From the NCBI GenBank assembly GCA_965212025.1, contig OZ243039.1, positions 1,018,983 through 1,082,982 on the forward strand: a stretch of 64,000 nucleotides of DNA. The letters are read 5' to 3'. A program made the translations under genes and the position numbers. The stretch comes from Candidatus Oxydemutatoraceae bacterium (lineage in GTDB: Bacteria > Pseudomonadota > Gammaproteobacteria > Poriferisulfidales > Oxydemutatoraceae). Positions 8,346-44,872 of this stretch are shown piece by piece; positions within the stretch are counted from its first letter, which is position 1; each line of letters begins with the position of its first letter. The notes beneath the pieces were generated by a model that worked only from the letters and a program-made list of their open reading frames with translations, did not search any database and was not told the DNA's origin.

Positions 8346-11320
8346 TTGAACTTTCTCTTTGCCAGTTCCATAAAGCGGTCGCTCACTGCTTTAACGGGCG
8401 ACTCGTCAAAATGCTCAATCAGGGCTCGCCTGATAATCTTCCTGACTCTTTTCTGTTCGTCCCATTTTTCCCAGAACCCCACAACGTGGGTTGCTTCCTC
8501 TATTTTGGAGACCAGAGACCGAGTCAGCATTTTGAGTTTTTCTGCTCTTTCCTCATCAGGGCTTTCGCCAGCTTGGGGTTTCTGGATTTCTGCTTCCAGG
8601 ATGTTGTAGAAAGGAGACTCTTTCATGGAAAGGCCGAGGTCATCCGCTTTCTTTTTGTGGTCGGCTTCCATGTTGTCACCTAAATCTATGAGGCCTTGAA
8701 CCAATTCATCCCACTTTTCTCCGTGTCTGCGAATGATGTCTTCCAAACGCTCGGAGAGAGACTTGTAATATTCAGGGTCATCGTCGAAGTTAACCTTGAT
8801 GTGACTCCGGATTGCGTTCACCATTTCAGATGCCCTTGATCTGGATGACTTGTACTGTCCTAACCGCTCTTTGAGGTCTTTTCCAAACAAGTCAACAGGG
8901 GCGATTCTGGTGGCAATTCCGGTTGAGTCAACATGCTCTTCAATCAGTCTCCTAACCTTCTCGCCTGCTGCCGTGATATCCAACTGTTCGTCCCGATAAC
9001 GATTTTTCGCACCAAGAGTAATTTTTCCCAGGTTCTTGAGATCGTGACAAAATGGGGCAGCCGCAGGGTTGGGGAGAATAATGTCCATTTGCCTTGCAAA
9101 GACCTGAAAATCTGCCTGGAAGTTCCGTCTTTTGACTGCATCTTCCAATGCCAAAATACATTCTTCCCAATCATCCATATCCAGCCCTTTGAAGTATTGA
9201 ATAACACGAGTGTGGGAATTCTTGAGTTTCGGAATTTCGTCCTTTAGTTCTATCAATGCACCCTGAACATCGTCCGTTGAAAACATGCTCAACGCTTCAT
9301 CGATGTAGTCGCTTAGGCCATAGTAGTCAACGATGTAGCCTCGGAACTTTTGCCTGTTTGGACGGTTCACCCGCGCGATTGCCTGCAGAAGGTTGTGGTC
9401 AGAGAGCTTACGGTCCAGGTACATAACCTGTGCGATGGGTGCATCAAAGCCGGTCAACAGCATGTCTTTGACGATAAGGAAACTCAGGTCTGACTGACCT
9501 TCACCTGTCCCGAAAGGTTTCTTGAAATCTTCAATCTGCCGTTTGTGTTTATTGCCGTCTGTATGTTCCCGGAACCGTTTCGGGTCGTTCTGTTCGCACG
9601 AGATGATCACTGCTGACTCAGGCGCTTCTAACCTATCCAGCTGCTCCTTGTAGGTAATCGCCGCTTTGCGGGATGAGGTGGCAATCATCGCCTTGAAGCC
9701 ATTGGGCTGGATATGTTCACAGTAATGTTCGAGGATATCTGCGCACACTTCGCGAATGCGGAGAGGTGCCTCCAGAATCGCCTTTTCAGTTCCGTATTTC
9801 TTTTTGACTGCCGCCTTTTCCTCGGCAGGACTGTCCGATAAGTAGTCCTCGAAGAGATTATCAAGCGAGCCTCCTGCCACTTGAAGCTCTGCCTCCCTGC
9901 CTTCATACACAATCTGGATTGTTGCTCCGTCTTTTACGGCTTCTTCGATGGTGTAGGTGTCGATATAAGACCCAAACTCGCGACTGGTCTTCTGCGTTTT
10001 GATAAGAGGCGTCCCGGTGAAGGCGATCTTTGGGGCATTAGGGAGCGCCGAGTTTAGTGCTGCGCCTAGGGTGCCATACTGAGTCCGGTGCGCTTCATCT
10101 GTCAGAACAATGATTTTTTCCGATTCATTGAGAACCGGAAATTCATCGCCATTTGTCCTCTCTTGGAACTTCTGAACTGTGGCTATGACGATATTTGAAG
10201 AGTCTGTCATCAAGAGTTCCTTCAGGGACTCTATCGAGTCTGCGTGTTGGACTGTCTCGCTTTGCGCACGGGTGAAAGTAGCGTTCAATTGGGTGTCCAA
10301 CTGGGTTCTGTCAGTGAGAAAGACGAGTTTACGGTCTCGCAGCTCCGGGTCTCTGCGCATCTTTATAGTCAAGAAGACCATGGTCAGCGACTTGCCCGAA
10401 CCTTGCGTGTGCCAGATGACACCGCCTTTTTCTCTGCGACTTGAGCCTGCCTTGATGCGTTTAATGGTCTTGTGAACTGCGCGGAACTGCTGATATCGGG
10501 CAATTTTCTTAACGGTACGCCCATCAACCGGTTCGAAGACCGTGAAGTTCTGCACAATGTCGAGGAAGTTGGCCTTGGAGAACAGACCTGCAATCAGTAT
10601 CCCCTGGGAATTTGCTTCTGAACCCACCTGCTCAACGTTTAGAGGGTAGGGGTCTTTCCACTCCAAATAATGTTCCATGCGGGACGTGATCGAGCCAAAC
10701 CGTGCCTTGCTCCCACAGCTGGAGACCATCATCTGGTTGTAATAAAAGAGCTTCTCCGCACCCTCGTCATCAGATGGGCTTCTGCGATTTGCATAACGCA
10801 GAAGCTGGTTAATGCCTGCCTGCATCGGATCGGTGATGTATGGAGATTTACATTCAATGACTGCCAGAGGAAGTCCATTCACGAATAGAACAATGTCGGG
10901 GATGATGTTTTGATGAACACCGGAGACCTTGAACTGGCTGGTACAAAGGAACTCATTACTCTCTGGGGTTTGAAAATCTATGATACGGACTGTCTGACCT
11001 TTGTTCCCCTTACCCAAGTCCTGCATCACTGAGACGCACCGGTTGAGGGCATTCCATATGAACTGATTTGCTTCAATCAGATTGCTGTGAGGGGTTTTGA
11101 TGAGATCACGCACCACTTTGCTGAGGTTCCCGGCATCTATCCACGGATTAATGCGTTTGATGCTTGCGGCAAGTCGTTTCTCAAGAACCACATCCTTGAA
11201 AGACCCCCGTTCACCAAACCCATCGGGGGAAAGTTCTGCCGCTTCGACATACGACCACCCCAAAGACTGGAGTTGTTTCAGTGCGGGAAGTTCTACGCTG
11301 TCACGCTCGTCCGTACTCAC
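8342..11320 (-). CDS. hsdR: Type I restriction enzyme, R (endonuclease/translocase) subunit
   Basis: 992 aa, intact. Walker A HTQGSGKSLTM, DEAH box VLTDEAHRTQ, and an N-terminal nuclease-like region. The GTG start overlaps the stop of the upstream DUF2513-like gene. Confidence 0.95.
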   Translation of the reverse strand: MSTDERDSVELPALKQLQSLGWSYVEAAELSPDGFGERGSFKDVVLEKRLAASIKRINPWIDAGNLSKVVRDLIKTPHSNLIEANQFIWNALNRCVSVMQDLGKGNKGQTVRIIDFQTPESNEFLCTSQFKVSGVHQNIIPDIVLFVNGLPLAVIECKSPYITDPMQAGINQLLRYANRRSPSDDEGAEKLFYYNQMMVSSCGSKARFGSITSRMEHYLEWKDPYPLNVEQVGSEANSQGILIAGLFSKANFLDIVQNFTVFEPVDGRTVKKIARYQQFRAVHKTIKRIKAGSSRREKGGVIWHTQGSGKSLTMVFLTIKMRRDPELRDRKLVFLTDRTQLDTQLNATFTRAQSETVQHADSIESLKELLMTDSSNIVIATVQKFQERTNGDEFPVLNESEKIIVLTDEAHRTQYGTLGAALNSALPNAPKIAFTGTPLIKTQKTSREFGSYIDTYTIEEAVKDGATIQIVYEGREAELQVAGGSLDNLFEDYLSDSPAEEKAAVKKKYGTEKAILEAPLRIREVCADILEHYCEHIQPNGFKAMIATSSRKAAITYKEQLDRLEAPESAVIISCEQNDPKRFREHTDGNKHKRQIEDFKKPFGTGEGQSDLSFLIVKDMLLTGFDAPIAQVMYLDRKLSDHNLLQAIARVNRPNRQKFRGYIVDYYGLSDYIDEALSMFSTDDVQGALIELKDEIPKLKNSHTRVIQYFKGLDMDDWEECILALEDAVKRRNFQADFQVFARQMDIILPNPAAAPFCHDLKNLGKITLGAKNRYRDEQLDITAAGEKVRRLIEEHVDSTGIATRIAPVDLFGKDLKERLGQYKSSRSRASEMVNAIRSHIKVNFDDDPEYYKSLSERLEDIIRRHGEKWDELVQGLIDLGDNMEADHKKKADDLGLSMKESPFYNILEAEIQKPQAGESPDEERAEKLKMLTRSLVSKIEEATHVVGFWEKWDEQKRVRKIIRRALIEHFDESPVKAVSDRFMELAKRKFK

Positions 11321-27410: not shown

Positions 27411-30400
27411 TTACCTGACCAATCCTCCAAGAAACACTTTCAGGCGGAGTCTCGTAATGAGGTTGGCACTGCGCGTTATTTTGAGCTTGTGGTCGCGGCT
27501 TTGACTGCCGGCAGCCACGCGTATATTGAACGTCGCTTCATTGTGGGCTTTCGGAATCGTCAGTTTCAGCTCGGCTTGACCGGAACCGTGGTGTTTAGCG
27601 AACTTTGCCGAGACTCCTGGTGGCAGGTCGCCAACCAGGCTCCAGGCTAATCCGGCACGCGGAAGCAGGGTGCTCAGTAGCACCGTCAGCTCTTGACTGC
27701 GGAATGGGATGGTTTTTTCCAGGAACTGGTCTTGGGCAAGCGCTGGTAAAGTACGATCGCTTAACATGCGCACAACCATCTGGTCTGTTTTGTCGGGGTC
27801 GGCCGCATCACTGACTTTGACCAGGAAACTGGTCCCATCTAACGGGAATTCTCCAAGCATCCCGTAGTACACCAGCATTTCAGATCTGCCTGGGTACGTT
27901 AATACGTTGCTTTCGCTGTCAGCACTTATAAGTTGCGCCATCACGCGGTTGTCATGGGGATTGACAAGTTCCCATTTCAAAGCCTGCCCGACGCTCCCTT
28001 GGGCAACCAAGTGTATAACCACTGCCTGTAATTCCTGGGCAAGGTAGATATTTATTGAGTCAGCGTCTAAAACGCTACTGCCAGAAATTTGGATGATTAC
28101 CGGCGGTGAATTTACTTGGCGAACGATAAGTCGTATTGAGGTAGTGCTGCCCAGTCTGTCTCTGGCTGATACTATGAATTGCCCTGTTGACCTTGATCCT
28201 TCCGGGCGCATGAACTGCACTTTGGCTATAGGACCCTTGGCAGTGGCAACTTGGTTGTTGACAAGGAAGTTGAGCGTACTTTCTTCAGGCGTACCTGTAA
28301 CCCGCTTTGCGGTCCACTCCAGCGAATCCAAATCCTCCGGGTAGTGGGTGTCGGCATATAACTGAAGGGATACTTGACGTTGGTCTGCCAGAATTTCCAA
28401 ATACTGCTCTTTATTCCCTGATATGGTCGGGGGATTGCTCGGTTTTAGAAAAACTGCGATTGTGGAAAATCCATTTTCCCCTATGGCTTCCACGGAGAAA
28501 TCGTCATTTTCCTGAATTTCTTCGCCTGGCTGATACACCACGGTGATCTGGGTGCCCATCCCCTGGGTGGCACAGATATCCCTGTCTTCCTCCGATAGGA
28601 AACATGCCCATCCTTTCCGTGGGGCGTGGTTTGGTGAAATCCGCCATGTCAGGGAATCTGCTGTGGGAGCCAAGGCGCTTAAAACCAATCGCAGTTCCGA
28701 GCTCTCGCCAGAAGTCACCTGCAGTTCTGTTTTACGATCAGCCAGGATCCGTGGTTGCGAGTCCGACGAAAGTCCCGTGACAAAGCTCCGCTCTGTTACC
28801 GTGTCTCCTTCTTCGTTGGAGAGAGTGATCCTGTAATAGGCATTACTGATCAAGTCTGAAAATATTGTTCCTGCCGACTGTATCCCGTTGCCCACACTGA
28901 CAGAGCGCGTTGCGACCGGCTCAGGATTTTCCTCCTGAAAAATACGAATGAGGTATTTCGCCTGTACGTTAACGGCGTCGCCAGAAACGGCCACGGTAAT
29001 ATCTGCTTCCGTCACACCTGCCTGAATCTGGATTTCAGGTTTTTCCGGTGGGTTCGGCAAACGAAAATGGCTGTTGGCCGGATGACTGGCAACCCCCATA
29101 ACGTGTGTGCGAACAGAATAGCTGACCGTGCTGCCATCTCCGTGCCTATCGCGGAGCCTAACCAGGTGTTCATCGGGGACTGTGGCGTATGTGGAGGTGA
29201 TGTTCCGGGTCAGTCCCGAGATTTCCAGCTCGTGAAAGTCCACCAAAGGCTCTGAGCTTTGCCACTCCAGCATCAGGCTGGTGAAAGACGCAAAGCTGGC
29301 TGCCAGACCTGTTGGTGCCGCAGGAATCTTTGTCAGCTTTTCGTGGCTGTGCAGAGGAAGCGTGCTACCGCTTCCAAAATGCCAGGAGTCTGTATCCCAG
29401 CCGGAATACGTCACGGCTCCAGCACACGTCTTGCCTGGCTCCGTTGGGCATTTTAGTTGTGTCAGGGTGCGCGGAAAGCTTCTCCGAATGTCTCCAATAT
29501 TTATGTCTCCGATATTTGTCCCGGAGAAATCGTTCACCCTGGTGTCTCCGGCCACTTTGCCTGCCGTGTAGCTGTTATGGATGCCCCCCACGTTGTAACC
29601 CGCAAAGCCGCCTACCCAACTTGTTCCTTGTATGGAGCCGGACGCGTAGTAGCTGTATGCAACAGTGGAAGGGTGATGATTGGTTCCCACGAAGCCGCCT
29701 ACCCACTTCCGCCCTGAAACCTTGCCGCTTGCGTGACTGTTGCTGATGTGTCCGCTGTTTGAACCGGCAAAACCACCTAAGTCATTATTTCCCGAGACTG
29801 AGCCAGTTGCGTAGCTGTGGGTGATGAAACCAAAGTTACTGCCTGTATGGCCACCCATACTACTGTTGGCAAAATCGTTTCCGGGGTCGCCCGTTCCGCT
29901 AACCGAGCCAGTTGCGTAACTGTAGCTGATAGTTCCGCTATTGGCTCCTGTGAGTCCCCCCGTGGCGCGATTTCCTGCGACTGTCCCTGTGGCATGGCTA
30001 TGGGTGATGGTTCCACTTGTCCTGTTTTCCCCCACCAGACCGCCAATAGCCCGGGAAGAACCGACCACCTGCCCGGTCGCGTAGCAATTCAGAATGTGAC
30101 CCTCGTTTTTGCCTGCGAAGCCCCCTACTTGGGCGGCATTGCCACCGACCCGACCGGACGAGTCACTGTTTCTGATCGTACCGGTATTGAATCCAACGAA
30201 GCCGCCAAGGCTGTAGGAAGCGAACTGATTGCGAGCTTGTACTTCCACATGGCTGTGACTGTTACTGATCATGCCATCGTTCTGTCCCACCATGCCACCA
30301 ATGCTGCCAGCCAGGAGGCTTCCGTTGAGAACCCCTCCTCTCACGGTACTATTTTCTATGAGCCCTTTGTTGTTATGTCCTGCCAGGGAACCTACGAGGG

Positions 30401-30902
30401 ATTTGCCAGTGGTTTGTGAATCTGCCAAGATGATTTGTTGCAAAGAGCTTTCTTCTTCAAGGCTGGAAAACATACCCACCTTACTTTCTTCGGGAAGGTT
30501 AATGAACAGATTGCTGATCGTGTACCCGAACCCGTTAAAAGAACCGAAAAAAGGGCCGATGGGGATAAAGCCACGCCCATCGTTCCATTCGCGGGTCTGT
30601 TTCGCTTCAATGCTGTTTGCCAGTACGTAGTGTGCTCGTGGTCTTGAGCACATTGCCTGTAACTGGTCAAGCGTGGTGATTGTGTAAGGCTCGGCTTCGG
30701 TGCCCTCGCCCACCCAAACTGCTTGTCCAGAGACCGAAGAAGTGCATAGGTTCTGTGATGGATCAGGATCATTCTGCAAGGAGAGACTGTCCTGTGCATA
30801 AAGATTGCAAGACATGCCAAAGCAGAAGGGCAGCAGCACGGCGTAGAGCCGTGCTGCTGCCGCCCACCCCCAGAAGGTTTCTTTATTATTATTATTATTC
30901 AC
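27411..30902 (-). CDS. Large secreted surface protein with GLUG-motif repeats and Ig/FN3-like C-terminal modules
   Basis: 1163 aa with a GTG start and a signal-peptide-like N-terminus ending LYA-QD. About 10 repeats of the type GGLVG.N.G.I..S.A.G.V.G occupy aa ~170-470. The remainder is beta-rich. Confidence 0.75.
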   Translation of the reverse strand: MNNNNNKETFWGWAAAARLYAVLLPFCFGMSCNLYAQDSLSLQNDPDPSQNLCTSSVSGQAVWVGEGTEAEPYTITTLDQLQAMCSRPRAHYVLANSIEAKQTREWNDGRGFIPIGPFFGSFNGFGYTISNLFINLPEESKVGMFSSLEEESSLQQIILADSQTTGKSLVGSLAGHNNKGLIENSTVRGGVLNGSLLAGSIGGMVGQNDGMISNSHSHVEVQARNQFASYSLGGFVGFNTGTIRNSDSSGRVGGNAAQVGGFAGKNEGHILNCYATGQVVGSSRAIGGLVGENRTSGTITHSHATGTVAGNRATGGLTGANSGTISYSYATGSVSGTGDPGNDFANSSMGGHTGSNFGFITHSYATGSVSGNNDLGGFAGSNSGHISNSHASGKVSGRKWVGGFVGTNHHPSTVAYSYYASGSIQGTSWVGGFAGYNVGGIHNSYTAGKVAGDTRVNDFSGTNIGDINIGDIRRSFPRTLTQLKCPTEPGKTCAGAVTYSGWDTDSWHFGSGSTLPLHSHEKLTKIPAAPTGLAASFASFTSLMLEWQSSEPLVDFHELEISGLTRNITSTYATVPDEHLVRLRDRHGDGSTVSYSVRTHVMGVASHPANSHFRLPNPPEKPEIQIQAGVTEADITVAVSGDAVNVQAKYLIRIFQEENPEPVATRSVSVGNGIQSAGTIFSDLISNAYYRITLSNEEGDTVTERSFVTGLSSDSQPRILADRKTELQVTSGESSELRLVLSALAPTADSLTWRISPNHAPRKGWACFLSEEDRDICATQGMGTQITVVYQPGEEIQENDDFSVEAIGENGFSTIAVFLKPSNPPTISGNKEQYLEILADQRQVSLQLYADTHYPEDLDSLEWTAKRVTGTPEESTLNFLVNNQVATAKGPIAKVQFMRPEGSRSTGQFIVSARDRLGSTTSIRLIVRQVNSPPVIIQISGSSVLDADSINIYLAQELQAVVIHLVAQGSVGQALKWELVNPHDNRVMAQLISADSESNVLTYPGRSEMLVYYGMLGEFPLDGTSFLVKVSDAADPDKTDQMVVRMLSDRTLPALAQDQFLEKTIPFRSQELTVLLSTLLPRAGLAWSLVGDLPPGVSAKFAKHHGSGQAELKLTIPKAHNEATFNIRVAAGSQSRDHKLKITRSANLITRLRLKVFLGGLVR

Positions 30903-31452: not shown

Positions 31453-33741
31453 GTGTATCCAGGTGTATACCAGGTCGAGGTTGGCTCGGGCTTTTTCCCC
31501 GGTTCGATGGTGCCCGGTCTCGGGAAGCAGCTTCGGCTGCGTTCCCTCTGCCACAGCGGTGCCCCCTTGCTTGATACGCTGAATGACCAGCAGAAAAAGG
31601 CGGTTACGGTTCCGTCTTCCCGGTCGGCTATGGTTTTTGCCGGTGCCGGCAGTGGCAAAACGCATGTGTTGGCGCATCGCATTGCCTGGTTGTGTGAAAG
31701 CGAAAAATTCTCGCCCAGAGATTTATTGGCGCTGACTTTTACGAACAAAGCTGCCCGTGAAATGCGTACCCGGGTTGAGCAAACTTTGGGACGTAGCGTT
31801 CAGGATCTCTGGATTGGAACTTTTCATGGGATTTGCCATCGCCTGCTCAAGCGGCATCGGGAAGACCTTGGTCTGGCGAGCCATTTTCTGATTCTGGACG
31901 CCTCGGATCAGAGACGGTTTTTGCGTCGGGTGATGGCGAACCTAGGCGTGGACACGCAGCAAGATTACGTTAAGGAAGTGCAGTATTTTATTAACGGTTG
32001 CAAAGAGCAGGGGTGGCGAGCGAAGTCAGTGCCGCAGGAACACCTGGCGCGCCGACGGGAACATTTACGCATATACGCAGCCTATGAAAATGGCTGTCGC
32101 CAGTCCAACCTTGTCGATTTTGCAGAACTACTCTTGCGCAGCTATGAAATGTTTTCGGATTGTGAAGGGATTTTGCGCAGTTACCGCTCGCGTTTTCGTT
32201 GTCTGTTGGTCGACGAATTTCAAGATACGAACCAGATGCAATACAAGTGGTTGCGCAGACTTGCCGGTGAAGAAGTGCCTTTATTTGTAGTGGGGGACGA
32301 CGATCAGTCGATCTACGGCTGGCGAGGAGCCGATGCCGAAAACTTCAACAAATTCCGACGCCACTTCAAGGATGTGTGCGTGCAAAAGTTGGAGCAGAAC
32401 TACCGCTCTACGAAAATGATTTTGGATGCGGCGAATCATTTGATTGAAAATAATCAGAATCGGAACGGGAAAAAGCTTTGGACTGACGGAGATAGGGGCG
32501 AGCCGGTGATGGTTTTTACTGCCCGTAACGAAGGAGAAGAAGCGGCTTTCGTGGCTTCGAAAGCCCAGGAGTGGGTTGATTCGGGTCGGAAGTACACCGA
32601 AGCTGCGGTGTTGTATCGCTCCAACGCGCAGTCTCGGGTGTTTGAATCGGAACTGCTCAAGCAAAATATTCCGTATCGCATCTATGGTGGCCTACGGTTT
32701 TTTGAGCGTTCTGTCATCAAGGATGCCCTTGCGTATCTGTGTTTGCTTTGTAACTTCGAAGGCGATCATTTTTTGGTCAGGATCATCAATACCCCGGCGC
32801 GTGGGATCGGGCTGCGCAAACTCAGTGATTTGCGTGCGGTCGCCGAAGAGCGCGCTTGCAGCTATTGGAAGGCGCTGGAAATTTTGGCCACGCAAAGCGG
32901 CGAGTCGAAATACAAAGTGCTTACAGGCTTCCGTCAACTGATGACGGGTTTGCGTGACGCTGTTCAAAACCAGCCGCTTGTTGAACAGGTCAAACTGGTG
33001 ATTGAGAAAAGCGGCTTGTTGGCGCATCACCGTGCTGATTTGTCCGAAACAGGAAGGTCGAACGTGGAGTATCTGCGGGAATTGGTCAATGCCGCACGGC
33101 AAGCGGCGTTCGATCATTCTGCCTCTGAGGACAACCTGTCTCCGCTGGAGAATTTCCTGGCACAGGCGACTTTGGAGTCCGGCGGTGCCCAGAATGAGGG
33201 GCATGAAGACTGCCTGAGTTTGATGACTTTGCATTCCGCCAAAGGTCTGGAATTTCCTTTGGTGTTTCTGGTTGGGATGGAAGAAGAGCTGTTTCCGCAC
33301 AGGCGCGCGCTCAATGAGCACGGTGGTCTGGAAGAAGAGCGTCGTCTTTGTTACGTGGGAATGACACGGGCAAAGGAAAGTCTGTTTATGAGCTATTGTG
33401 AAGAGCGTTATGTTTTTGGATCCAGATCCAAAAACCATCGCTCACGCTTCATTGCGGAAGTCCCTGAGGAATGCATACGCGATCTTTGCCCTGAACGCCG
33501 GTATGCTCGGGGTTCGGTTGTGGGTAGCGGTAAATTTGAAGCAGGTGAAACTTTTCGCGTTGAGTTGCCATTGCAGCGTGGCATGATGGTTCGTCATGCC
33601 AGCCTGGGAGACGGCTGGGTCACCGATTTTTCAGGCCATGGCGAGACTTTGCGTGCTCTGGTGCGTTTTCGGAACGGTCCCAGCAAATGGGTGTTGTGGA
33701 GCTATGGCGGCCTGGAAATCTTGGAACATGGACTCGACTGA
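31453..33741 (+). CDS. UvrD/Rep-family ATP-dependent DNA helicase
   Basis: Motifs AGAGSGKT, DEFQDTN, QNYRS and VGMTRAKESL are present. The true start is probably internal (ATG 31507 or TTG 31567, the latter giving MLDTLNDQQKKAV). Confidence 0.9.
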   Translation: MYPGVYQVEVGSGFFPGSMVPGLGKQLRLRSLCHSGAPLLDTLNDQQKKAVTVPSSRSAMVFAGAGSGKTHVLAHRIAWLCESEKFSPRDLLALTFTNKAAREMRTRVEQTLGRSVQDLWIGTFHGICHRLLKRHREDLGLASHFLILDASDQRRFLRRVMANLGVDTQQDYVKEVQYFINGCKEQGWRAKSVPQEHLARRREHLRIYAAYENGCRQSNLVDFAELLLRSYEMFSDCEGILRSYRSRFRCLLVDEFQDTNQMQYKWLRRLAGEEVPLFVVGDDDQSIYGWRGADAENFNKFRRHFKDVCVQKLEQNYRSTKMILDAANHLIENNQNRNGKKLWTDGDRGEPVMVFTARNEGEEAAFVASKAQEWVDSGRKYTEAAVLYRSNAQSRVFESELLKQNIPYRIYGGLRFFERSVIKDALAYLCLLCNFEGDHFLVRIINTPARGIGLRKLSDLRAVAEERACSYWKALEILATQSGESKYKVLTGFRQLMTGLRDAVQNQPLVEQVKLVIEKSGLLAHHRADLSETGRSNVEYLRELVNAARQAAFDHSASEDNLSPLENFLAQATLESGGAQNEGHEDCLSLMTLHSAKGLEFPLVFLVGMEEELFPHRRALNEHGGLEEERRLCYVGMTRAKESLFMSYCEERYVFGSRSKNHRSRFIAEVPEECIRDLCPERRYARGSVVGSGKFEAGETFRVELPLQRGMMVRHASLGDGWVTDFSGHGETLRALVRFRNGPSKWVLWSYGGLEILEHGLD

Positions 33742-36778: not shown

Positions 36779-37738
36779 TCAGGATCGCATTTTTGCGGAT
36801 TCTGTTACGGCGGTGGCACAGTCCCTGTGAAAGCGCAAAACATTTTTGAAGTAATCGGGGTCTTTGATTTGTGTCAACTGTCCCGACTTGGGGAACAGTT
36901 TGCTCTTCAGGCGCGAGATCCAGAAGCGCAGTGCGGCGCGGCGCAGCGCGTCCCGCCAGACACGTTCTTCCCCGTCATCAAGCACCCGCCTGTTACAGTA
37001 GCTTTGCATCAGGGCATGGAGCCGCTGTTCATACAGCTCTCCGCGGTCATCGAAACACCAGGCATTGATGGTGACCGCAAGGTCATAAACCAGTGCGTCG
37101 TCGCCGGCATAATAAAAATCCAGTATGCCGGTCAGCGTGTGGCCGGAAAACAGCACATTGTCCGGAAACAGATCCGCGTGAATGGTTCCCTGTGGCAACA
37201 TGCCCAGAGACAGTTTTTGCTGATGGGCCAGTTCACTGTGTAACAGCGTGCTGTCTTCGGGTGCCAACAAAGGCAGAACCTGGTTTCCGCTTTTTATGCA
37301 CCAGGCGAGTCCGCGAACGTTCTCACAGCGATGCATAAAATTTTTCATTGCCAAGTGCATTGCTGCGAGCGCGTCACCCACCAGGCGGCAGTGCGAAACG
37401 GTCGGGGAGTTAACGGTATGGCCGGAGAGGTACGCCACCAAAACCGCAGGTTTTCCGTTTAATTCTTGCAGGTAGTGGCCGTCCACATCGGCAACCGGGT
37501 ACGGTGCCGGCAACCCCGCCCGCGCGACATGCGCCATGAGTGCCAGATAGTAGGGCAATTCATGGTGTTCCAACCACTCAAACAGGGTCAACACGTACCG
37601 ACCGTTGCTGGTTTCGACACTGTAATTGGTGTTTTCTACGCCTTCGCTGATGCCATGCAGGCTGACCAGCTTGCCGACGGCGTAACGGTCAAGATATTTC
37701 TCGACCTGGGTTTCAGTGAGGTGGGTATATACAGACAC
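36779..37738 (-). CDS. thrB: Homoserine kinase, ThrB type II (APH-fold, Pseudomonas type)
   Basis: 319 aa: MSVYTHLTETQVEKYL...ISEGVENTNY...IHADLFPDNVLF. It is divergent from polA, as in many gammaproteobacteria. Confidence 0.85.
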   Translation of the reverse strand: MSVYTHLTETQVEKYLDRYAVGKLVSLHGISEGVENTNYSVETSNGRYVLTLFEWLEHHELPYYLALMAHVARAGLPAPYPVADVDGHYLQELNGKPAVLVAYLSGHTVNSPTVSHCRLVGDALAAMHLAMKNFMHRCENVRGLAWCIKSGNQVLPLLAPEDSTLLHSELAHQQKLSLGMLPQGTIHADLFPDNVLFSGHTLTGILDFYYAGDDALVYDLAVTINAWCFDDRGELYEQRLHALMQSYCNRRVLDDGEERVWRDALRRAALRFWISRLKSKLFPKSGQLTQIKDPDYFKNVLRFHRDCATAVTESAKMRS

Positions 37739-38118: not shown

Positions 38119-38343
38119 ATGGGCGATAGAAAAATAGAAAATCAGAGCAGAGGAAGTGGTGCTCTTGTGCCCGCTTCATCTGCCTATTGGACTGAGAAGT
38201 TCAAAAGTGCTGGCTTTCTGGAATTAAATGATGTCGCGGCTCCATGCCAATCGGAGCAGTCCAGCGCGCAAAATTCGCTTGTAACCGAGGTGCCAGTCAC
38301 CTTTACCCAAGACGCCATGGACACGGTGAAGGTGGAAATCTGA
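38119..38343 (+). CDS. Candidate 74-aa ORF translationally coupled (TGATG) to the ATPase gene
   Basis: The stop TGA at 38341-38343 shares one nt with the ATG at 38343. The composition is more protein-like than the in-frame 5' extension of the ATPase ORF. There is no recognisable domain and no clear SD. Confidence 0.25.
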   Translation: MGDRKIENQSRGSGALVPASSAYWTEKFKSAGFLELNDVAAPCQSEQSSAQNSLVTEVPVTFTQDAMDTVKVEI

Positions 38344-39344
38344 TGGCACGAGCAGATTTGCTGGTGAAAATGTTCAAGAGCGTCAGCACAGACGACCAAT
38401 TGGCGTTTCGCAGGTTTGCCGAAGCCGTGATACAGGAAGAAAAAGCCAAAGGGCATCAGATTCTGGCGGAACGCCTGACCAAAGCGCTGAGGCCTAATTC
38501 GCGTCGAGCCGGGCGTGACCCTGGGCTCAGGGAAAGCAGAAGCAATGGGCAGTGTCAGGATTTGTTCCATGAAATCACACCCGAGCGTACGCTGGACAGC
38601 CTGGTTTTGTCGGACGCAACCCGCAGTCTGATCACCGGTGCAGTGGAAGAACAGCATCGCGCCGAGTTGTTGCACTCCCACAATCTTCGCGCCTGCAACC
38701 GGATTCTGCTCGCAGGGCCACCAGGCAATGGCAAGACGAGTCTGGCTGAAGCTTTAGCCTGTGAGTTGATGTACCCCATGGTGGTGATTCGCTACGAAAC
38801 CTTAGTGGGCAGTTATCTGGGCGAAACGTCGGGACGCTTGATGCGCGTTCTGGACTATGCGAAAACGCAGCGATGCGTACTGTTTTTCGATGAATTCGAG
38901 ACGCTTGGCAAGGAGCGTGGCGACACTAACGAAACGGGTGAAATAAAGCGTGTGGTGAGCTCGCTTCTTTTGCAAATTGATGCGCTGCCAGATTACGTTG
39001 TGATCGTTGCCGCCAGTAATCATCCGGAGTTGCTCGACAGAGCGGTATGGAGGCGTTTTCAGTTGCACATTGAATTGCCTGTTCCGAGTCGTCGGCAATT
39101 GACACAACACATTGAGGCTATCGGCAAACGCTGCCGGATTCACTTTGGTTATGCCTCGGAGACCTTGGCAAAACAGATGAAAGGCGTGAATTTTGCAGAG
39201 GTGGAGGAGTTTTGCCTAAGCATAGTGCGCCGAGCGGTTCTTGACAGAAACACAGACAACGCGAAATCCATAACCAAGCTGAAGCTGGAGCAATGGCAAG
39301 GTCGCTTAGGAGCTCTTTCAAGCAGGCAGAGTGAAGGCGAGTAG
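38343..39344 (+). CDS. AAA+ ATPase (classical AAA module), IetA-like
   Basis: The ATG at 38343 is preceded by AAGGTGGA. Walker A GPPGNGKT (38715-38738), Walker B VLFFDEFE, and SRH AASNHPELLDRAVWRRF are present. 333 aa. Confidence 0.8.
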   Translation: MARADLLVKMFKSVSTDDQLAFRRFAEAVIQEEKAKGHQILAERLTKALRPNSRRAGRDPGLRESRSNGQCQDLFHEITPERTLDSLVLSDATRSLITGAVEEQHRAELLHSHNLRACNRILLAGPPGNGKTSLAEALACELMYPMVVIRYETLVGSYLGETSGRLMRVLDYAKTQRCVLFFDEFETLGKERGDTNETGEIKRVVSSLLLQIDALPDYVVIVAASNHPELLDRAVWRRFQLHIELPVPSRRQLTQHIEAIGKRCRIHFGYASETLAKQMKGVNFAEVEEFCLSIVRRAVLDRNTDNAKSITKLKLEQWQGRLGALSSRQSEGE

Positions 39345-39347
39345 TTC

Positions 39348-41945
39348 TTGGCTGCCCATTTGCCTCTTTTGCTTTTTCCCTCGGTACGGACGGTTGAGCC
39401 TTCGCCCGGGAAGGGGTTTCCACCAGACAGATCTTGGTGTTTTCCTGGATTCGACAGGCAAAAGGAGAGGCTTGATGGGCAGATTAAAGGCCTGAAAGAG
39501 CATCTTTATAAGGCAAGCCTGGATGGCTCTCTCGCAGGAATGGAGCCCGAGATGGTGCTGGTCATAGAGATTGTCGGGATGGTTGAAGGGTTTAAGCAGG
39601 CAATTGACAGGGTCGACGGGTGGGAGTGGCTTGGGGAGTGGGATCTTGAAGGCATCAAAGCAGATGCAGACTTTTATAAAAAAACCACCAAGGGGGAGCA
39701 CAGCGGAAAACCACTGAAGGGAATGGCTTTCCTGTCTGTCAGCAATGGAAAGGGCTACAAGGAGTTGCTGAGGTTATGGGAGACCCACAAGTCGGGGAAT
39801 CTGCCGCGTGGGGAAAAGAAGTGGAGAGACGTGTTTACTCAAGTCAGGAATATACGCCCTTGGGGGATTCAGGAGGTTCTAGACGAGACTGGCATGCTGG
39901 ACCACTGGAAATGGGATTCGGAAAGAGCCTTCCAGATCGAATTGTTCTACCGACAGGATGCATCGAAGCGGAAAGAAGCCGAAGAAGTGGTTCGGAAGAA
40001 GTTGGAGGATGCAGATGGTAAGACTCTTGATGACTTCCTTGATATGGAGGAAATTCGCTTTCATGCGGTCAAGGCTCAATTGCCTGGTGCCCGGATAGCA
40101 GACCTGATCGAAAAGCTGGGTAGCGACGACTCTGAAAGCAGCATCCCGTTATTCAATTTCTCTGCTGTAATGTACGTCCGACCGACAGGCCAAAGCATGG
40201 TGAGTACTGAGGGGGAGGAGGGCGTTGAAGGAGAATTTTCAAAAATACCGTCAGATCCCGAATTGCCCCCGGTAGTAGCGATTCTGGACGGTGTCCCCAA
40301 CCTTCAACACGAGGCACTACGCGGTCGTCTACGCCTTGAAGACCCCTTTGACCTGGAGAAAGGATACCAGCCAGGCCAAAAACGTCATGGCACAGCAATC
40401 GCTTCACTGGTGGTGCATGGGGAGAATCCAGGCGGACAATCCACTCCTTTGGTGAGACAGGTTTATTGTTTTCCGGTGATGCAGGCTGACGCCAAAGACA
40501 GTCAAAACGAGTGTCTCCCGGACGAGGTTTTTTATGAAGATCGTACGGAAAGAGCTGTCCGACTCATGTTTGAGAGCCAAGGGGACGAGCCTGTAGCACC
40601 CGACATTAAAGTTATAAATTTTTCGCTGGGCGACCCGTCTCGTCCCTTTATCCGTACGCCAAGTTCATGGGCGAGATTGTTGGATCATTTGTCATGGAAA
40701 TACAGGGTGTTGTTTTGCGTGAGTGCGGGGAACTTCGGTGGCAGTATAGAACTCGAGATCACGAGCGATGAGTTTGCCAGGTTGCCCGATGAAGACAGAA
40801 TCTGTCTCACTATGTCAGCCATCACAAGGCAGTTAACCAAGAGGCGCCTGATTTCCCCGGCGGAGTCGTTAAATGCGTTGACTGTTGGTGCTCTGCACGC
40901 CGACAAATCCGTGGGCTATTCTTTGAGTGGTCTTGTAGATTTGTTGCCGGGTGACTCGCTACCCGGCGACTTGCTGCCCAGTCCTGTCTCCCGCTTTGGT
41001 CATGGATTTAGGCGCTCAATAAAGCCTGAGATTTTGTTTCCGGGAGGTCGTCAGCTGTACATGGATCAGCCCCAGCGGAGTGGACGGTCTTTTAAAATTT
41101 CAAAAATAATTTCTGTGCCTCCCGGGCAAAAGGTCGCTTGGGATAGCAGAGAAGAAGGAACCCTTAATAAAACCGTCTACTCCAGGGGTACCAGCTACGC
41201 GGCCGCGCTGGCGACTCACAGCGCGGCCAGAATTTATGAAGTATTGACAGATTTGCGTGCAGCGGACGGTGAAGGAATTCCGGATGGGCTGATGTCAGTA
41301 CTCATAAAAACCTTGCTGGCGCATGGTGCGCAGCAAGACGCCCGGGTTCGGTCTGTGCTTGAAGCTCAGTTGAAACGCTCGGGGGGCTCGCGCCGACTCA
41401 AGGAGGGTGTTGCGCGGTATATCGGCTATGGTTCGGTGGATATTGAACGTGTTCTGTCGTGTGCGGAGCATCGCGGTGCGATCCTGGGGTTTGGCGAAAT
41501 TCAAGAAAAAAAGGTGCACGAGTACGACTTCCCTCTGCCACCCGCCCTGTCTGGAAGCAAAGAGTGGCGTCGCATGGTGGTTACGTTGGCGTGGGTTTCC
41601 CCGATCAACATGAGCCACCGTAATTTGCGCGAGGCGAAGCTTGACTTTAGCTCCACCCAGAAATGGAGGGAAACGCCTTTGGGACTGAAGAGAACAGATT
41701 TTGACCACCATCAGGTAAAGCGCGGCACAGTACAGCACGAGATTTTTGAGGGAGAAGGAGAAGTGTCACAGTATGTGGAAGACGGCAACATCAAGTTGCA
41801 GGTTACGTGTAAGGCGGATGCATGCGAGAACTTGAGCGACAGTATTCCTTATGGTCTGGCCGTCACGCTGGAAGTGGCAGAAGGTGTGCAAATCCCTGTT
41901 TATCAGCAAATGCGCGCCAGAATTCGTGACAGGGTTCATGCCTGA
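39348..41945 (+). CDS. S8 (subtilisin-like) serine peptidase with large N- and C-terminal extensions, IetS-like
   Basis: 865 aa. Candidate triad D314 (VAILDGV), H347 (RHGTAIASL) and S616 (GTSYAAA), with oxyanion N462 (SAGN). It starts (TTG) 3 nt after the ATPase stop. Confidence 0.8.
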   Translation: MAAHLPLLLFPSVRTVEPSPGKGFPPDRSWCFPGFDRQKERLDGQIKGLKEHLYKASLDGSLAGMEPEMVLVIEIVGMVEGFKQAIDRVDGWEWLGEWDLEGIKADADFYKKTTKGEHSGKPLKGMAFLSVSNGKGYKELLRLWETHKSGNLPRGEKKWRDVFTQVRNIRPWGIQEVLDETGMLDHWKWDSERAFQIELFYRQDASKRKEAEEVVRKKLEDADGKTLDDFLDMEEIRFHAVKAQLPGARIADLIEKLGSDDSESSIPLFNFSAVMYVRPTGQSMVSTEGEEGVEGEFSKIPSDPELPPVVAILDGVPNLQHEALRGRLRLEDPFDLEKGYQPGQKRHGTAIASLVVHGENPGGQSTPLVRQVYCFPVMQADAKDSQNECLPDEVFYEDRTERAVRLMFESQGDEPVAPDIKVINFSLGDPSRPFIRTPSSWARLLDHLSWKYRVLFCVSAGNFGGSIELEITSDEFARLPDEDRICLTMSAITRQLTKRRLISPAESLNALTVGALHADKSVGYSLSGLVDLLPGDSLPGDLLPSPVSRFGHGFRRSIKPEILFPGGRQLYMDQPQRSGRSFKISKIISVPPGQKVAWDSREEGTLNKTVYSRGTSYAAALATHSAARIYEVLTDLRAADGEGIPDGLMSVLIKTLLAHGAQQDARVRSVLEAQLKRSGGSRRLKEGVARYIGYGSVDIERVLSCAEHRGAILGFGEIQEKKVHEYDFPLPPALSGSKEWRRMVVTLAWVSPINMSHRNLREAKLDFSSTQKWRETPLGLKRTDFDHHQVKRGTVQHEIFEGEGEVSQYVEDGNIKLQVTCKADACENLSDSIPYGLAVTLEVAEGVQIPVYQQMRARIRDRVHA

Positions 41946-42091: not shown

Positions 42092-44872
42092 ATGATGAAG
42101 AAAAAATTTTTACTGGTTGACGGATCGCACTATCTTTTTCGTGCTTACTTTGCGTTGCCGAGACTGACTGCCCCGGACGGGCATCTGACGGGCGTGGTCT
42201 ACGGCGTCATTTCGATGCTGAAAAAACTGTACGAGTCTGAGAAGCCGGATTATTTCGCGGTGATTTTTGATGCGCCCGGGCGCAATTTTCGCCACGAGAT
42301 TTTTCCGGAATATAAGGCCAACCGGCCGCCGGTTCCGGAAGATTTGTCACAGCAGTTCGCTCCGACTCTGGAGATGGTATCTGCGATGGGCTATCCCGTG
42401 CTCCAGGTTCCGGACGTGGAGGCCGACGATGTGATTGCGACTTTGGCGCGGCAGACACAAGGTCAGAAAGTGTCGGTGGTCATTGCCACGGGGGACAAGG
42501 ATTTGACTCAGCTGGTTGATGACGGGGTCATGGTTTACGAGGCGATGAAGAATGCGCGCCTCGATGCGGCTGCCGTCGAAAAGAAAATGGGTGTGCCCCC
42601 GTGTCTGGTGGGTGATTTGCTTGGGCTCACCGGGGATAGCGTAGACAACGTACCCGGAGTTCCGGGAGTGGGGCCTAAAACAGCGCTTGCCTGGTTGGGT
42701 CAGTTTGGAAGCCTGGAAGGGGTCGTGCAACACGCTGCGCAAATCAAGGGGAAGGTCGGTGAAAAACTGCGACTGGCAATAACAGATGGAAGTCTTGCGC
42801 TTTCCAGGCGGCTTATCGCTTTGCGTACCGACGTGGAGCTGGAACACGGATACGAAAGTATGCAGGTGGAAGTGGCAGATGTGACGCGTTTACGTGAGCT
42901 GTATCAAAGGCATGGCTTCAAGAGATGGCTGTCAGAGCTTGAGAGGACTGCTGCTGTTGCTCCTGCTGAGGGGAAGCCCGTGAGTACTGTTTCTGTTGTT
43001 TCTTCCGAGGAAGAATCTGAGAGCACCGTTGCTGCCGGGAAAGAGTCCGCGAACTCTGCCCCGGAATGTCATTACGAAACGATATTGACGGAGGCTGAAC
43101 TGGAGGCATGGATCGTGCGGTTACGGGAAAGTGCCTTGTTTGCCGTGGATACTGAAACCGACAGCCTGGATTACATGAGCGCGCAACTGGTTGGCATGTC
43201 CTTTGCCGTCGCTCCGGGAAGAGCGGCTTATGTACCGTGCGGTCATGATTATCCAGACGCACCCAGGCAGATTACGCGCGACAATTTGTTACGACTGATC
43301 AGGCCGGTGCTTGAGGATCCCGGCATCAGCAAGGTCGGACATAACCTGAAATTTGATCGCAATGTATTGGCTTCTTGCGGGATCAGTCTCGCCGGCATTC
43401 GCTCGGACACGATGCTTGAGTCTTATGTCTATAATTCGGTGGCGACAAAGCATAGTCTGGACAGCGTTGCACACCATTATCTGGGACTGGCTGCCATCCG
43501 CTTTGAAGACGTCGTCGGCAGCGGTGTCAGGCAAAAAACCTTCAATCAGATTGCCTTGTCGGAGGCGGCTCCATACGCCTCGGAGGACGCGGATTTCAGC
43601 TTGCGCCTGCACGAGTCTTTTCAGCCGAAGTTTGCAAATGAAGCGGGCTTGCGAACCGTGCTGCACAAGATTGAGCTCCCTCTGCTGCCCGTCCTGGCGG
43701 ATGTTGAGCGCACCGGAGTGTTGGTGGATTGCGAAGCGTTGAAAGCGCAAAGCGAGCAGCTGCAAAAGGAACGATTGCGCATCCAGCAGCTTGCCTACGA
43801 AGCAGCCGGTCACGAGTTCAATTTGAATTCACCGCAGGCTACCGCGCAGGTACTGTTTCAGGAAAAGCAGTTACCGGTGATACGCAAAACTCCCGGGGGG
43901 CTTCCTGCTACTTCCGAAGAGGTGTTGCAGGAGTTGGCGAAAGACCATGTTTTGCCGAACTTTATTCTGGAGCACCGTCTGCTCAGCAAACTGAAGTCCA
44001 CGTACACCGACAAGCTGCCACAGTTGGTGTACCCCGCGAGCGGTCGGGTGCATACGCAATATCACCAAGCCGTCACGGCGACCGGAAGACTGTCTTCTTC
44101 CCACCCCAATCTGCAAAACATCCCCATCCGCACCGGGGTGGGGCGCCGGGTTCGCGAAGCCTTCGTTGCCCCGCCCGGATATTGCCTGCTCGCCGCAGAT
44201 TATTCACAAATAGAGTTGCGGATCATGGCTCATTTGTCCGGTGATGAGAAATTATGCGCGGCTTTTGCGCGCAAAGAAGATGTTCACGGAGCCACCGCGG
44301 CTGAACTTTTTTCCATCCCTATTGAGTCGGTGAGCCCTGAACATAGGCGGGTTGCGAAATCCATAAATTTTGGCTTGATTTACGGGATGACCGAGTTTGG
44401 TCTGTCTCGGCAGCTGAAGCTCAGTCGCCGTGAGGCTGCGGATTATCGGGAGCGTTATTTTGACCGTTACACAGGTGTGCAGGCTTATATTGAAGCGACG
44501 CTACAGACAGCCAAGAGGCTGTGCTACGTGGAAACAGTGTTTGGTCGCAGGTTGTCCTTGCCGAACATCAATGCCAGAAATTACCATGTCAGGAGTTATG
44601 CGGAGCGAAGCGCGGTCAACGCTCCGATGCAAGGCAGCGCGGCAGACATCATTAAAATCGCCATGATCGATTTGCATCGCCACCTGCTGCAAAGCTCCCT
44701 GGATGCGAGAATCATCATGCAGATCCACGATGAGCTGGTGCTCGAAGTTGCTTTGGATGACGTAGAAGAGACGGCTGGCAAGTGTCGTGAGCTGATGGTC
44801 GCGGCTGCGTCTTTGAAAGTGCCTCTGGAGGTGGCGATTGGCTGGGGTAAAAACTGGAATGAGGCGCACTGA
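42092..44872 (+). CDS. polA: DNA polymerase I
   Basis: 926 aa with a 5'-nuclease N-terminus (LLVDGSHYLFRAYFALP), a 3'-5' exonuclease (AVDTETDSL) and polymerase motifs (ADYSQIELR, QIHDELV). Confidence 0.97.
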   Translation: MMKKKFLLVDGSHYLFRAYFALPRLTAPDGHLTGVVYGVISMLKKLYESEKPDYFAVIFDAPGRNFRHEIFPEYKANRPPVPEDLSQQFAPTLEMVSAMGYPVLQVPDVEADDVIATLARQTQGQKVSVVIATGDKDLTQLVDDGVMVYEAMKNARLDAAAVEKKMGVPPCLVGDLLGLTGDSVDNVPGVPGVGPKTALAWLGQFGSLEGVVQHAAQIKGKVGEKLRLAITDGSLALSRRLIALRTDVELEHGYESMQVEVADVTRLRELYQRHGFKRWLSELERTAAVAPAEGKPVSTVSVVSSEEESESTVAAGKESANSAPECHYETILTEAELEAWIVRLRESALFAVDTETDSLDYMSAQLVGMSFAVAPGRAAYVPCGHDYPDAPRQITRDNLLRLIRPVLEDPGISKVGHNLKFDRNVLASCGISLAGIRSDTMLESYVYNSVATKHSLDSVAHHYLGLAAIRFEDVVGSGVRQKTFNQIALSEAAPYASEDADFSLRLHESFQPKFANEAGLRTVLHKIELPLLPVLADVERTGVLVDCEALKAQSEQLQKERLRIQQLAYEAAGHEFNLNSPQATAQVLFQEKQLPVIRKTPGGLPATSEEVLQELAKDHVLPNFILEHRLLSKLKSTYTDKLPQLVYPASGRVHTQYHQAVTATGRLSSSHPNLQNIPIRTGVGRRVREAFVAPPGYCLLAADYSQIELRIMAHLSGDEKLCAAFARKEDVHGATAAELFSIPIESVSPEHRRVAKSINFGLIYGMTEFGLSRQLKLSRREAADYRERYFDRYTGVQAYIEATLQTAKRLCYVETVFGRRLSLPNINARNYHVRSYAERSAVNAPMQGSAADIIKIAMIDLHRHLLQSSLDARIIMQIHDELVLEVALDDVEETAGKCRELMVAAASLKVPLEVAIGWGKNWNEAH

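Follow-up and report, generated by a model that had tools for sequence, protein, structure and literature searches.

Described systems of the IetAS family

IetAS, an operon of an AAA+ ATPase gene (ietA) and an S8-family protease gene (ietS), was reportedly described as an anti-phage system by Gao et al. in 2020. The earliest description of the family is as a toxin-antitoxin system for plasmid stability (PMC13069673, PMC5006074). In the SgiAT pair of SGI1 the toxicity of the protease is neutralised by the ATPase, and the same study cites the IetAS of pTiC58 (PMC5006074). In Mycoplasma TA132/133 the ATPase is the antitoxin, and deletion of the antitoxin alone is lethal (PMC8562856); the ATPase of ietHAS, likewise, serves as antitoxin to a toxic protease (PMC13069673). 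The ietAS of B. cereus acts by abortive infection, its toxicity being triggered by expression of yosG of SPbeta (10.1101/2022.08.27.505566), and protection against phages by ietAS systems was obtained in experiments (10.1101/2022.08.27.505566, 10.1101/2022.08.21.504612). Here we analyse a candidate ietAS pair between thrB and polA in a 64,000-nucleotide stretch (“the window”) of contig OZ243039.1 from a Candidatus Oxydemutatoraceae bacterium. It is likely that the pair is an intact IetAS-type module, in which an ATPase-restrained protease acts in toxin-antitoxin or abortive infection; this mode of action is inferred from experiments on distant homologues. An original prediction from the letters of the window held that such systems have no known trigger, substrate or mechanism. 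This view is partly outdated, as toxin-antitoxin behaviour and the yosG trigger are described in the literature; the anti-phage mechanism was still called unknown in 2026 (PMC13069673).

Identification of the ietAS pair

The ietA gene runs from an ATG at 38343 to a TAG at 39342–39344 and encodes 333 amino acids (aa), and ietS runs from a TTG at 39348 to 41945 and encodes 865 aa. Both lie on the + strand with the ATPase gene first and a spacer of 3 nt, and a Shine-Dalgarno-like sequence (AAGGTGGA) sits 6 nt 5′ of the ietA ATG. The predicted layout (two co-directional genes 3 nt apart, the first preceded by a Shine-Dalgarno sequence) agreed with the table of open reading frames (ORFs) and with the sequence. 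A longer ietA ORF opens at 38244, so that K131 of the 333-aa form is K164 in the long-ORF numbering; the start at 38343 was backed by 71 IetA homologues aligning from residue 1. The database gene caller placed the ietS start later (797 aa), and the TTG start was backed by the N-terminus MAAHLPLLLFP, compared with a family consensus of MAxxLPLLVFP.

Both proteins gave full-length matches to PADLOC models: IetA to PDLC04232 (E 2.9e-138, residues 1–324 on profile positions 1–322 of 330) and IetS to PDLC04233 (E 6.7e-280, residues 1–864 on profile positions 1–849 of 855). An IetA match and an IetS match in adjacent co-directional genes, the ATPase first, constitute IetAS as PADLOC defines it, so the identification proposed originally was borne out. 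The other PADLOC IetS models matched the window IetS weakly (E 1e-29 or worse).

Pfam AAA (PF00004) matched IetA residues 121–246 with 101.4 bits (gathering threshold 21.2). In an alignment of 71 homologues, seven of the eight Walker A positions were invariant and the remaining one, the second (P126), was 70–90% conserved. The second region of homology (SRH), AASNHPELLDRAVWRRF, lies at residues 223–239, and its R234, R237 and R238 were conserved, as were the sensor-1 N226 and D183 and E184 of Walker B. Walker A, Walker B and the SRH lay where they had been placed. IetA has the features of a classical AAA+ ATPase: it exceeds the Pfam threshold and carries Walker A and B, a sensor-1 Asn and an SRH that includes Arg fingers. 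Its nearest solved relatives by sequence were p97/Cdc48 D2 domains (E about 1e-37). An aromatic-hydrophobic-Gly pore loop is a mark of substrate-threading AAA+ unfoldases, and the SYLGE motif of IetA fits it. IetA probably forms a hexameric remodeller or unfoldase.

Pfam Peptidase_S8 matched IetS residues 309–681 with 68 bits (gathering threshold 21.8). H347, N462 and S616 were invariant in alignments of 43, 132 and 47 sequences; D314 did not vary among the 43 or the 47 sequences, and among the 132 its conservation was at least 90%. Since hhalign of IetS against one subtilisin sequence covered the His region only, MAFFT --add was used with a subtilisin BPN′ sequence. In that alignment D314, H347, N462 and S616 fell on BPN′ D32, H64, N155 and S221, and S426-L-G on S125-L-G. 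The proposed triad and oxyanion Asn therefore align with the subtilisin catalytic positions, and they were conserved across >850 clusters. IetS is by these measures an S8 peptidase, with a Pfam score above threshold, D-H-S order and an oxyanion Asn at canonical positions. Its motifs depart from what we take to be the PROSITE subtilase patterns (D-G instead of D-x-G, and GTSYAAA without Pro).

At the junction, the layout TAG-TTC-TTG was the same in the close relatives, and ietA and ietS are likely to be translationally coupled. Among 68 family loci the gap between the two genes was mostly −11 to +25 nt, with a TGATG overlap in 11 and a three-nt spacer in 14, junctions typical of translational coupling. 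The ietS start was TTG in the window and in all close relatives; in 68 other family loci it was ATG in 51, and TTG otherwise occurred only in locus L144. The TTG start may keep toxin translation low. An ietA-ietS fusion by stop-codon read-through was considered, since the two genes share a frame, and was dropped; the relative frame varied freely across the 68 loci.

Distribution of the family

When clustered at 50% identity, the IetS family comprised 2272 clusters at E<=1e-3 and 852 at E<=1e-30. Among 80 genome loci, ietA was directly 5′ of ietS in every informative one (that is, with upstream sequence present). Contexts beyond the pair were otherwise unrelated and spread over many phyla, indicating horizontal spread of ietAS. 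In plasmid searches the full-length relatives were distant only (<=35% identical), and no close IetAS relative was found in phage genomes or in E. coli genomes.

At about 14 loci (L165, L086, L089, L093, L095, L098, L099, L102, L112, L124, L132 and L142 among them) the pair lay inside an operon in the order helix-turn-helix protein, DUF499, 333-aa protein, IetA, IetS, methyltransferase, 165-aa protein and SNF2 helicase. Its parts were HTH_17, a DUF499 ATPase, an HmaB/PglX-like methyltransferase and a BrxH/HmaA/DrmD-like SNF2 helicase, and PD-T7-3 and GmrSD often came after it. In P. paraeruginosa (CP109657.1; L165, 5221–22302) this composite operon was on an integrative and conjugative element (ICE) beside PD-T7-3 and GmrSD. 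It may be a restriction-like plus abortive-infection system. A tblastn search with the Pseudomonas operon proteins found none of the partner genes in the 64-kb window.

History of the locus

The nearest relatives (L001–L003) were three contigs of one sponge metagenome with the pair at the same site between thrB and polA; for one of them there is also a record as the chromosome of an uncultured Candidatus Porisulfidus sp. (PMC12988363). The gene order dctPQM-thrB-ietA-ietS-polA-ABC was common to the window and all three. Their protein identity to the window was 91–94% for the flanking dctPQM, thrB and ABC, 88–89% for IetA and 68–75% for IetS. The more distant L167 had the same synteny, with flanking genes 78–88% identical to those of the window. 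Between its thrB and polA there was only an open 384-aa ORF (8559–9713), corresponding to IetS residues 459–865 at 62% identity. This remnant was without ietA, the N-terminal module, D314, H347 and N462; it terminates in a GIRAGIRAGIRA repeat.

In a neighbour-joining tree of 81 IetS C-terminal sequences, the window, the three relatives and the L167 remnant formed one clade in 50/50 bootstraps. The G+C content of the pair equalled that of its flanks, and no flanking direct repeats or insertion scars were found around it. The region between about −19 kb and +14 kb was free of mobility genes, as had been predicted for the vicinity. The same-site relatives, the clade with L167, the flank-like G+C, the absence of repeats and the presence of housekeeping genes to either side indicated that the pair is old and not a recent insertion. 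From these comparisons we conclude that it was acquired once, long ago, was passed on by vertical descent, and was partially deleted later in L167.

Since L167 keeps only an ietS remnant, the pair is dispensable and accessory. Comparison of the thrB-polA interval in relatives, as the original prediction had proposed, thus showed that the pair is not universally kept, since ietA and the 5′ half of its ietS are missing from L167. The pair had been read as an insertion into a core intergenic region. Its accessory nature holds, given the loss in L167 and the unrelated contexts elsewhere; the insertion is not a recent one, given the same site in the relatives. The premise that thrB and polA are direct divergent neighbours in many gammaproteobacteria held in part, being found at the two most similar outgroup thrB loci.

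Evolutionary rate and mosaic structure

Among the three closest relatives, synonymous divergence (dS) was 0.02–0.05 in the flanking genes, 0.07–0.10 in ietA and 0.18–0.25 in ietS. The ratio of nonsynonymous to synonymous divergence (dN/dS, ω) of ietA was about 0.2 between the window and the relatives and 0.06–0.10 among the relatives themselves; that of ietS was about 0.35–0.40. No frameshifts were found in the four ietA/ietS orthologues. By these ratios both genes are under purifying selection. IetS residues 1–62 were identical between L001 and L003, yet dS in the S8 domain was 0.26. When the window was compared with its relatives, these same residues diverged most of all segments (48–60% identity, ω 0.5–1.2), and the C-terminal jelly-roll-like domain was the most constrained (ω about 0.23). 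Three indel hot spots lay near window residues 113, 537 and 833. This mosaic among close relatives suggests intragenic recombination in ietS, and the pattern is as expected of a functional gene that recombines under diversifying pressure.

These data bear on two other explanations of the pair. It might be a domesticated housekeeping ATP-dependent protease for quality control or regulated proteolysis, core to the lineage: an AAA+ unfoldase with a protease resembles Lon, FtsH and Clp, and in four genomes the pair occupies a single site and is under purifying selection. However, L167 deleted ietA and half of ietS, the family is patchily and horizontally distributed across phyla in unrelated contexts, the evolution of ietS far outpaces that of the core genes beside it, and a bona fide FtsH gene lies 6 kb downstream, so that we regard a housekeeping role as very improbable.

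Alternatively, the pair might be a selfish addiction module only, kept in a reduced symbiont genome since it is hard to lose and having no part in phage defence. Its stay at one chromosomal site through species-level divergence, the lack of a defence island or mobile element around it and the first description of the family as a plasmid-stability toxin-antitoxin (PMC13069673, PMC5006074) speak for this. But ietS is mosaic and, among close relatives, its synonymous divergence is about five times that of the flanks, which an arms race fits better, clade members elsewhere lie in defence islands, and phage protection by ietAS was shown experimentally (10.1101/2022.08.27.505566, 10.1101/2022.08.21.504612). 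Addiction as the sole function is accordingly unlikely in our judgement.

Predicted structure of IetS

An AlphaFold model of IetS from the diverse 132-sequence alignment had a predicted local distance difference test score (pLDDT) of 92.7 and a predicted template modelling score (pTM) of 0.95. It superseded a first run on the shallow 43-sequence alignment (pLDDT 49.8), whose Foldseek matches were meaningless. The top Foldseek match of the model in the Protein Data Bank (PDB) was pro-Tk-SP (3afg, E 1.1e-17; 691 aligned columns against a 507-residue chain), followed by PCSK9 and furin. Pro-Tk-SP consists of an N-propeptide, a subtilisin domain and a beta-jelly roll; PCSK9 of a prodomain, a catalytic domain and a C-terminal domain; and furin of a catalytic domain and a P domain. 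PDB sequence searches with IetS, its profile or the S8 region alone gave nothing useful, and no similar solved structure was detectable by them.

The N-terminal and C-terminal parts of IetS, which had been left unassigned originally, could now be assigned by structure prediction; it still holds that no Pfam family matches them, none being found over these parts in any of 47 diverse members. Residues 63–282 were read from strand-helix order in the model as two ferredoxin-like units, propeptide-like, the ACT/ferredoxin-like structural matches of this module being only weak. Residues 701–865 were read as beta-jelly-roll or P-domain-like. The linker at residues 283–308 is a candidate autoprocessing or tether segment, any role in processing being conjectural. 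IetS is probably a cytoplasmic subtilisin-family protease with the overall fold of a pro-convertase.

Such a structure would also suit the reverse arrangement: IetS would be a zymogen that inhibits itself, and a phage-sensing IetA would activate it rather than restrain it constitutively, by unfolding or stripping the N-terminal module or by Lon/ClpXP-like substrate feeding. The idea is structurally attractive, with the pro-convertase-like architecture, propeptide-like N-terminal module and variable linker of IetS on one side and the unfoldase-type pore loop and p97 D2-like sequence of IetA on the other. Against it, the genetics of four homologous systems make the ATPase the antitoxin, its loss being toxic or lethal and its co-expression neutralising the protease (PMC5006074, PMC8562856, PMC13069673), and L167 did not lose ietA without also losing the catalytic half of ietS. 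We therefore doubt that IetA is an activator.

A further proposal joins the zymogen fold to restraint by the ATPase. The large, fast-evolving N-terminal module (arm, helix and alpha/beta units) of a cytoplasmic IetS zymogen would be both inhibitor and phage sensor, and IetA would act on it as an ATP-driven dead-man's switch. The ietAS pair, elsewhere mobile, would in this sponge-symbiont lineage have become a lasting, domesticated immune gene of the chromosome, diversifying by intragenic recombination. We put this forward tentatively and regard it as less likely than not.

Proposed mode of action

In the mode of action that we favour, restraint of the protease by the ATPase, translation of ietA (antitoxin) and ietS (toxin, with a weak TTG start) would be coupled. 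As long as a cell is uninfected, IetA would use ATP to keep IetS proteolytically silent. A phage-encoded trigger, or loss of IetA, would free IetS, which would then cleave cellular (or phage) proteins and stop growth, resulting in abortive infection or post-segregational killing. The module would diversify quickly in the lineage, partly via recombination, and its loss would be possible only when the antitoxin goes along with the catalytic half of the toxin. In L167 the deletion of ietA also took the catalytic half of ietS, as a toxin-antitoxin relationship predicts. Clade members in a Pseudomonas ICE defence island lie beside HmaB/PglX-like, BrxH/DrmD-like, PD-T7-3 and GmrSD genes.

Several points weigh against this reading. 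The scores against the NCBIfam equivalogs were well below cut-off, 224.3 against 510 bits for IteA (NF042959) and 96.8 against 900 bits for IteS (NF042956), and identity of the window proteins to plasmid-borne relatives was about 25–35%; function is thus transferred by family and not by orthology. The missed cut-offs place the pair in a related clade: judged by profile scores, it is a distant clade of the IetAS family in the broad sense, distinct from the NCBIfam equivalogs. We know of no experimentally tested member of this clade. The propeptide-like reading of the IetS N-terminus comes from the predicted model and a whole-chain Foldseek match rather than from residue-level superposition. Promoter and terminator scans gave no signal above shuffled sequence or chance. 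The pair has no defence-island or mobile-element context, and long vertical residence is atypical for defence genes.

IetAS is a defence system from the 2020 set of Gao et al. whose molecular mechanism is still unsolved. To it this locus adds a confident structural assignment of two formerly unassigned IetS regions, a natural experiment in L167, where the ATPase was lost only along with the protease catalytic half, and a defence/toxin-antitoxin module held at one core-genome site across a sponge-symbiont lineage while evolving faster than its neighbours. The classification as IetAS is unchanged by these additions, which mainly supply testable hypotheses, among them an autoprocessing linker and an inhibitor or sensor role for the N-terminal module. 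The pair is an ordinary but sound member of a known family, unusual only in lasting at one chromosomal site in its lineage.

Features of the locus and neighbouring genes

The features of the locus are listed in Table 1.

Table 1. Features of the ietAS locus, in positions of the window
Feature	Position	Strand	Evidence or remark
UvrD-type helicase, syntenic core gene	31453-33741
thrB-type homoserine kinase (APH fold)	36779-37738	-	Upstream flank
171-nt unit in the ietA 5′ region	38131..38299	+	Single copy here, about 40 nt before the ATG
ietA, classical-clade AAA+ ATPase, presumed antitoxin/restraining partner	38343..39344	+	PADLOC, Pfam AAA
IetA Walker A GPPGNGKT, residues 125-132 (K131)	38715..38738	+	Alignment of 71 homologues
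IetA pore-loop-1-like motif S157-Y-L-G-E161	38811..38825	+	Conserved in 71 homologues
IetA Walker B VLFFDEFE, residues 179-186 (D183/E184)	38877..38900	+	Alignment of 71 homologues
ietA stop/ietS start junction TAG-TTC-TTG	39342..39350	+	Same layout in close relatives
ietS, S8 subtilase, presumed toxin/effector	39348..41945	+	PADLOC, Pfam Peptidase_S8, AlphaFold model
IetS N-terminal arm and long helix, residues 1-62, conserved PLLxFP motif	39348..39533	+	Alignments, model
IetS N-terminal alpha/beta module, residues 63-282, ends in invariant RPTGQ (278-282)	39534..40193	+	Model
IetS variable acidic linker, residues 283-308	40194..40271	+	pLDDT 75-83, variable sequence
IetS S8 catalytic domain, residues 309-700	40272..41447	+	Pfam, alignments
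IetS catalytic codons D314, H347, N462, S616	40287-40289, 40386-40388, 40731-40733, 41193-41195	+
IetS C-terminal all-beta domain, residues 701-865	41448..41942	+	Only strands in model
polA	42092-44872	+	Downstream flank

The 171-nt unit 5′ of ietA was present as one copy in the window and L001, and in tandem as two copies in L003 (8582–8952) and three in L002 (8311–8816), where Tandem Repeats Finder gave a period of 171 and a 92% match. A + strand ORF stays open across the copies (74, 131 and 176 aa) and shows no coding signature. The unit may be a promoter or leader repeat. The TGA of the 74-aa ORF of the window (38119–38343) overlaps the ietA ATG, which made this ORF a candidate third gene. 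Its dN/dS was about 0.4–1.0, no better than in other frames, and the minus strand was open too; it had no Pfam match and no homologue at other ietAS loci, and it was dropped because of this lack of coding signal and of matches.

The flanking genes, predicted as thrB and polA, proved to be the homoserine kinase and polA of Table 1. In the three nearest relatives polA was less conserved than its neighbours (84–86% protein identity to the window, against 91–94%), and its product varied in length (926 aa in the window, 978–991 aa in L001–L003, 937 aa in L167). Beyond the UvrD-type helicase gene, the window (27411–30902, - strand) and L167 have a gene for a GLUG-motif protein (1162 aa in the window), and L001–L003 have at that position an N6_N4 methyltransferase gene with an IS1595-type zinc ribbon. 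Just upstream of dctP, L001 (4157–4357), L002 (3442–3642) and L003 (3719–3919) have a second copy matching the first 67 codons of the long dctP ORF of the window, at 81–84% identity. The 369-aa dctP ORF of the window probably starts too early, 330 aa being called in the relatives.

Comparison with known systems

TRIP13/Pch2-like regulators of CBASS (cyclic-oligonucleotide-based anti-phage signalling systems) are, like the proposed IetA, AAA+ remodellers serving as off-switch of an abortive-infection effector, and TRIP13 has weak profile similarity to IetA (PADLOC TRIP13, E 1e-14). However, the window pair has no HORMA partner, its effector is a protease, and IetA is nearer the p97 D2 type, so the likeness is an analogy only.

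The whole-chain predicted fold of IetS matches pro-Tk-SP best, then PCSK9 and furin, although these are only 11–18% identical to it. The N-terminal module of IetS, at about 280 residues, is far larger and has an arm and a helix in addition, and IetS differs further in having no signal peptide-like N-terminus and in being partnered with an AAA+ ATPase.

With pTiC58 IetA/IetS, SGI1 SgiA/SgiT and Mycoplasma TA132/133 the pair shares the order of antitoxin ATPase first and protease second, close or overlapping genes and the same domain families (PMC5006074, PMC8562856). Those systems, by contrast, are on a plasmid, a genomic island and a mycoplasma chromosome and were studied for stabilisation. 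They are also distant in sequence from the window pair: plasmid relatives are <=35% identical, and an A. tumefaciens plasmid match covers only 26% of the window IetS.

As to ietHAS (Liu-DS4) and the Hma/BREX-like operons, the IetA and IetS embedded in those of Pseudomonas, Dyella and Citrobacter belong to the same clade, with about 54% IetS identity. The window pair, in contrast, stands alone. DUF499, the 333-aa protein, the methyltransferase, the 165-aa protein and the SNF2 helicase are all absent from the 64 kb, and it is a SNF2 helicase in the same operon, with or without a DUF499 ATPase and an N6 methyltransferase, that defines the composite type.

Compared with IetAS as known from Gao et al. 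(2020) and PADLOC, the pair differs in belonging to the PDLC04232/PDLC04233 clade, its matches to the other IetS models being weak. It has in common with it the two-gene operon, the ATPase upstream of an S8 protease, full-length model matches and complete catalytic motifs.

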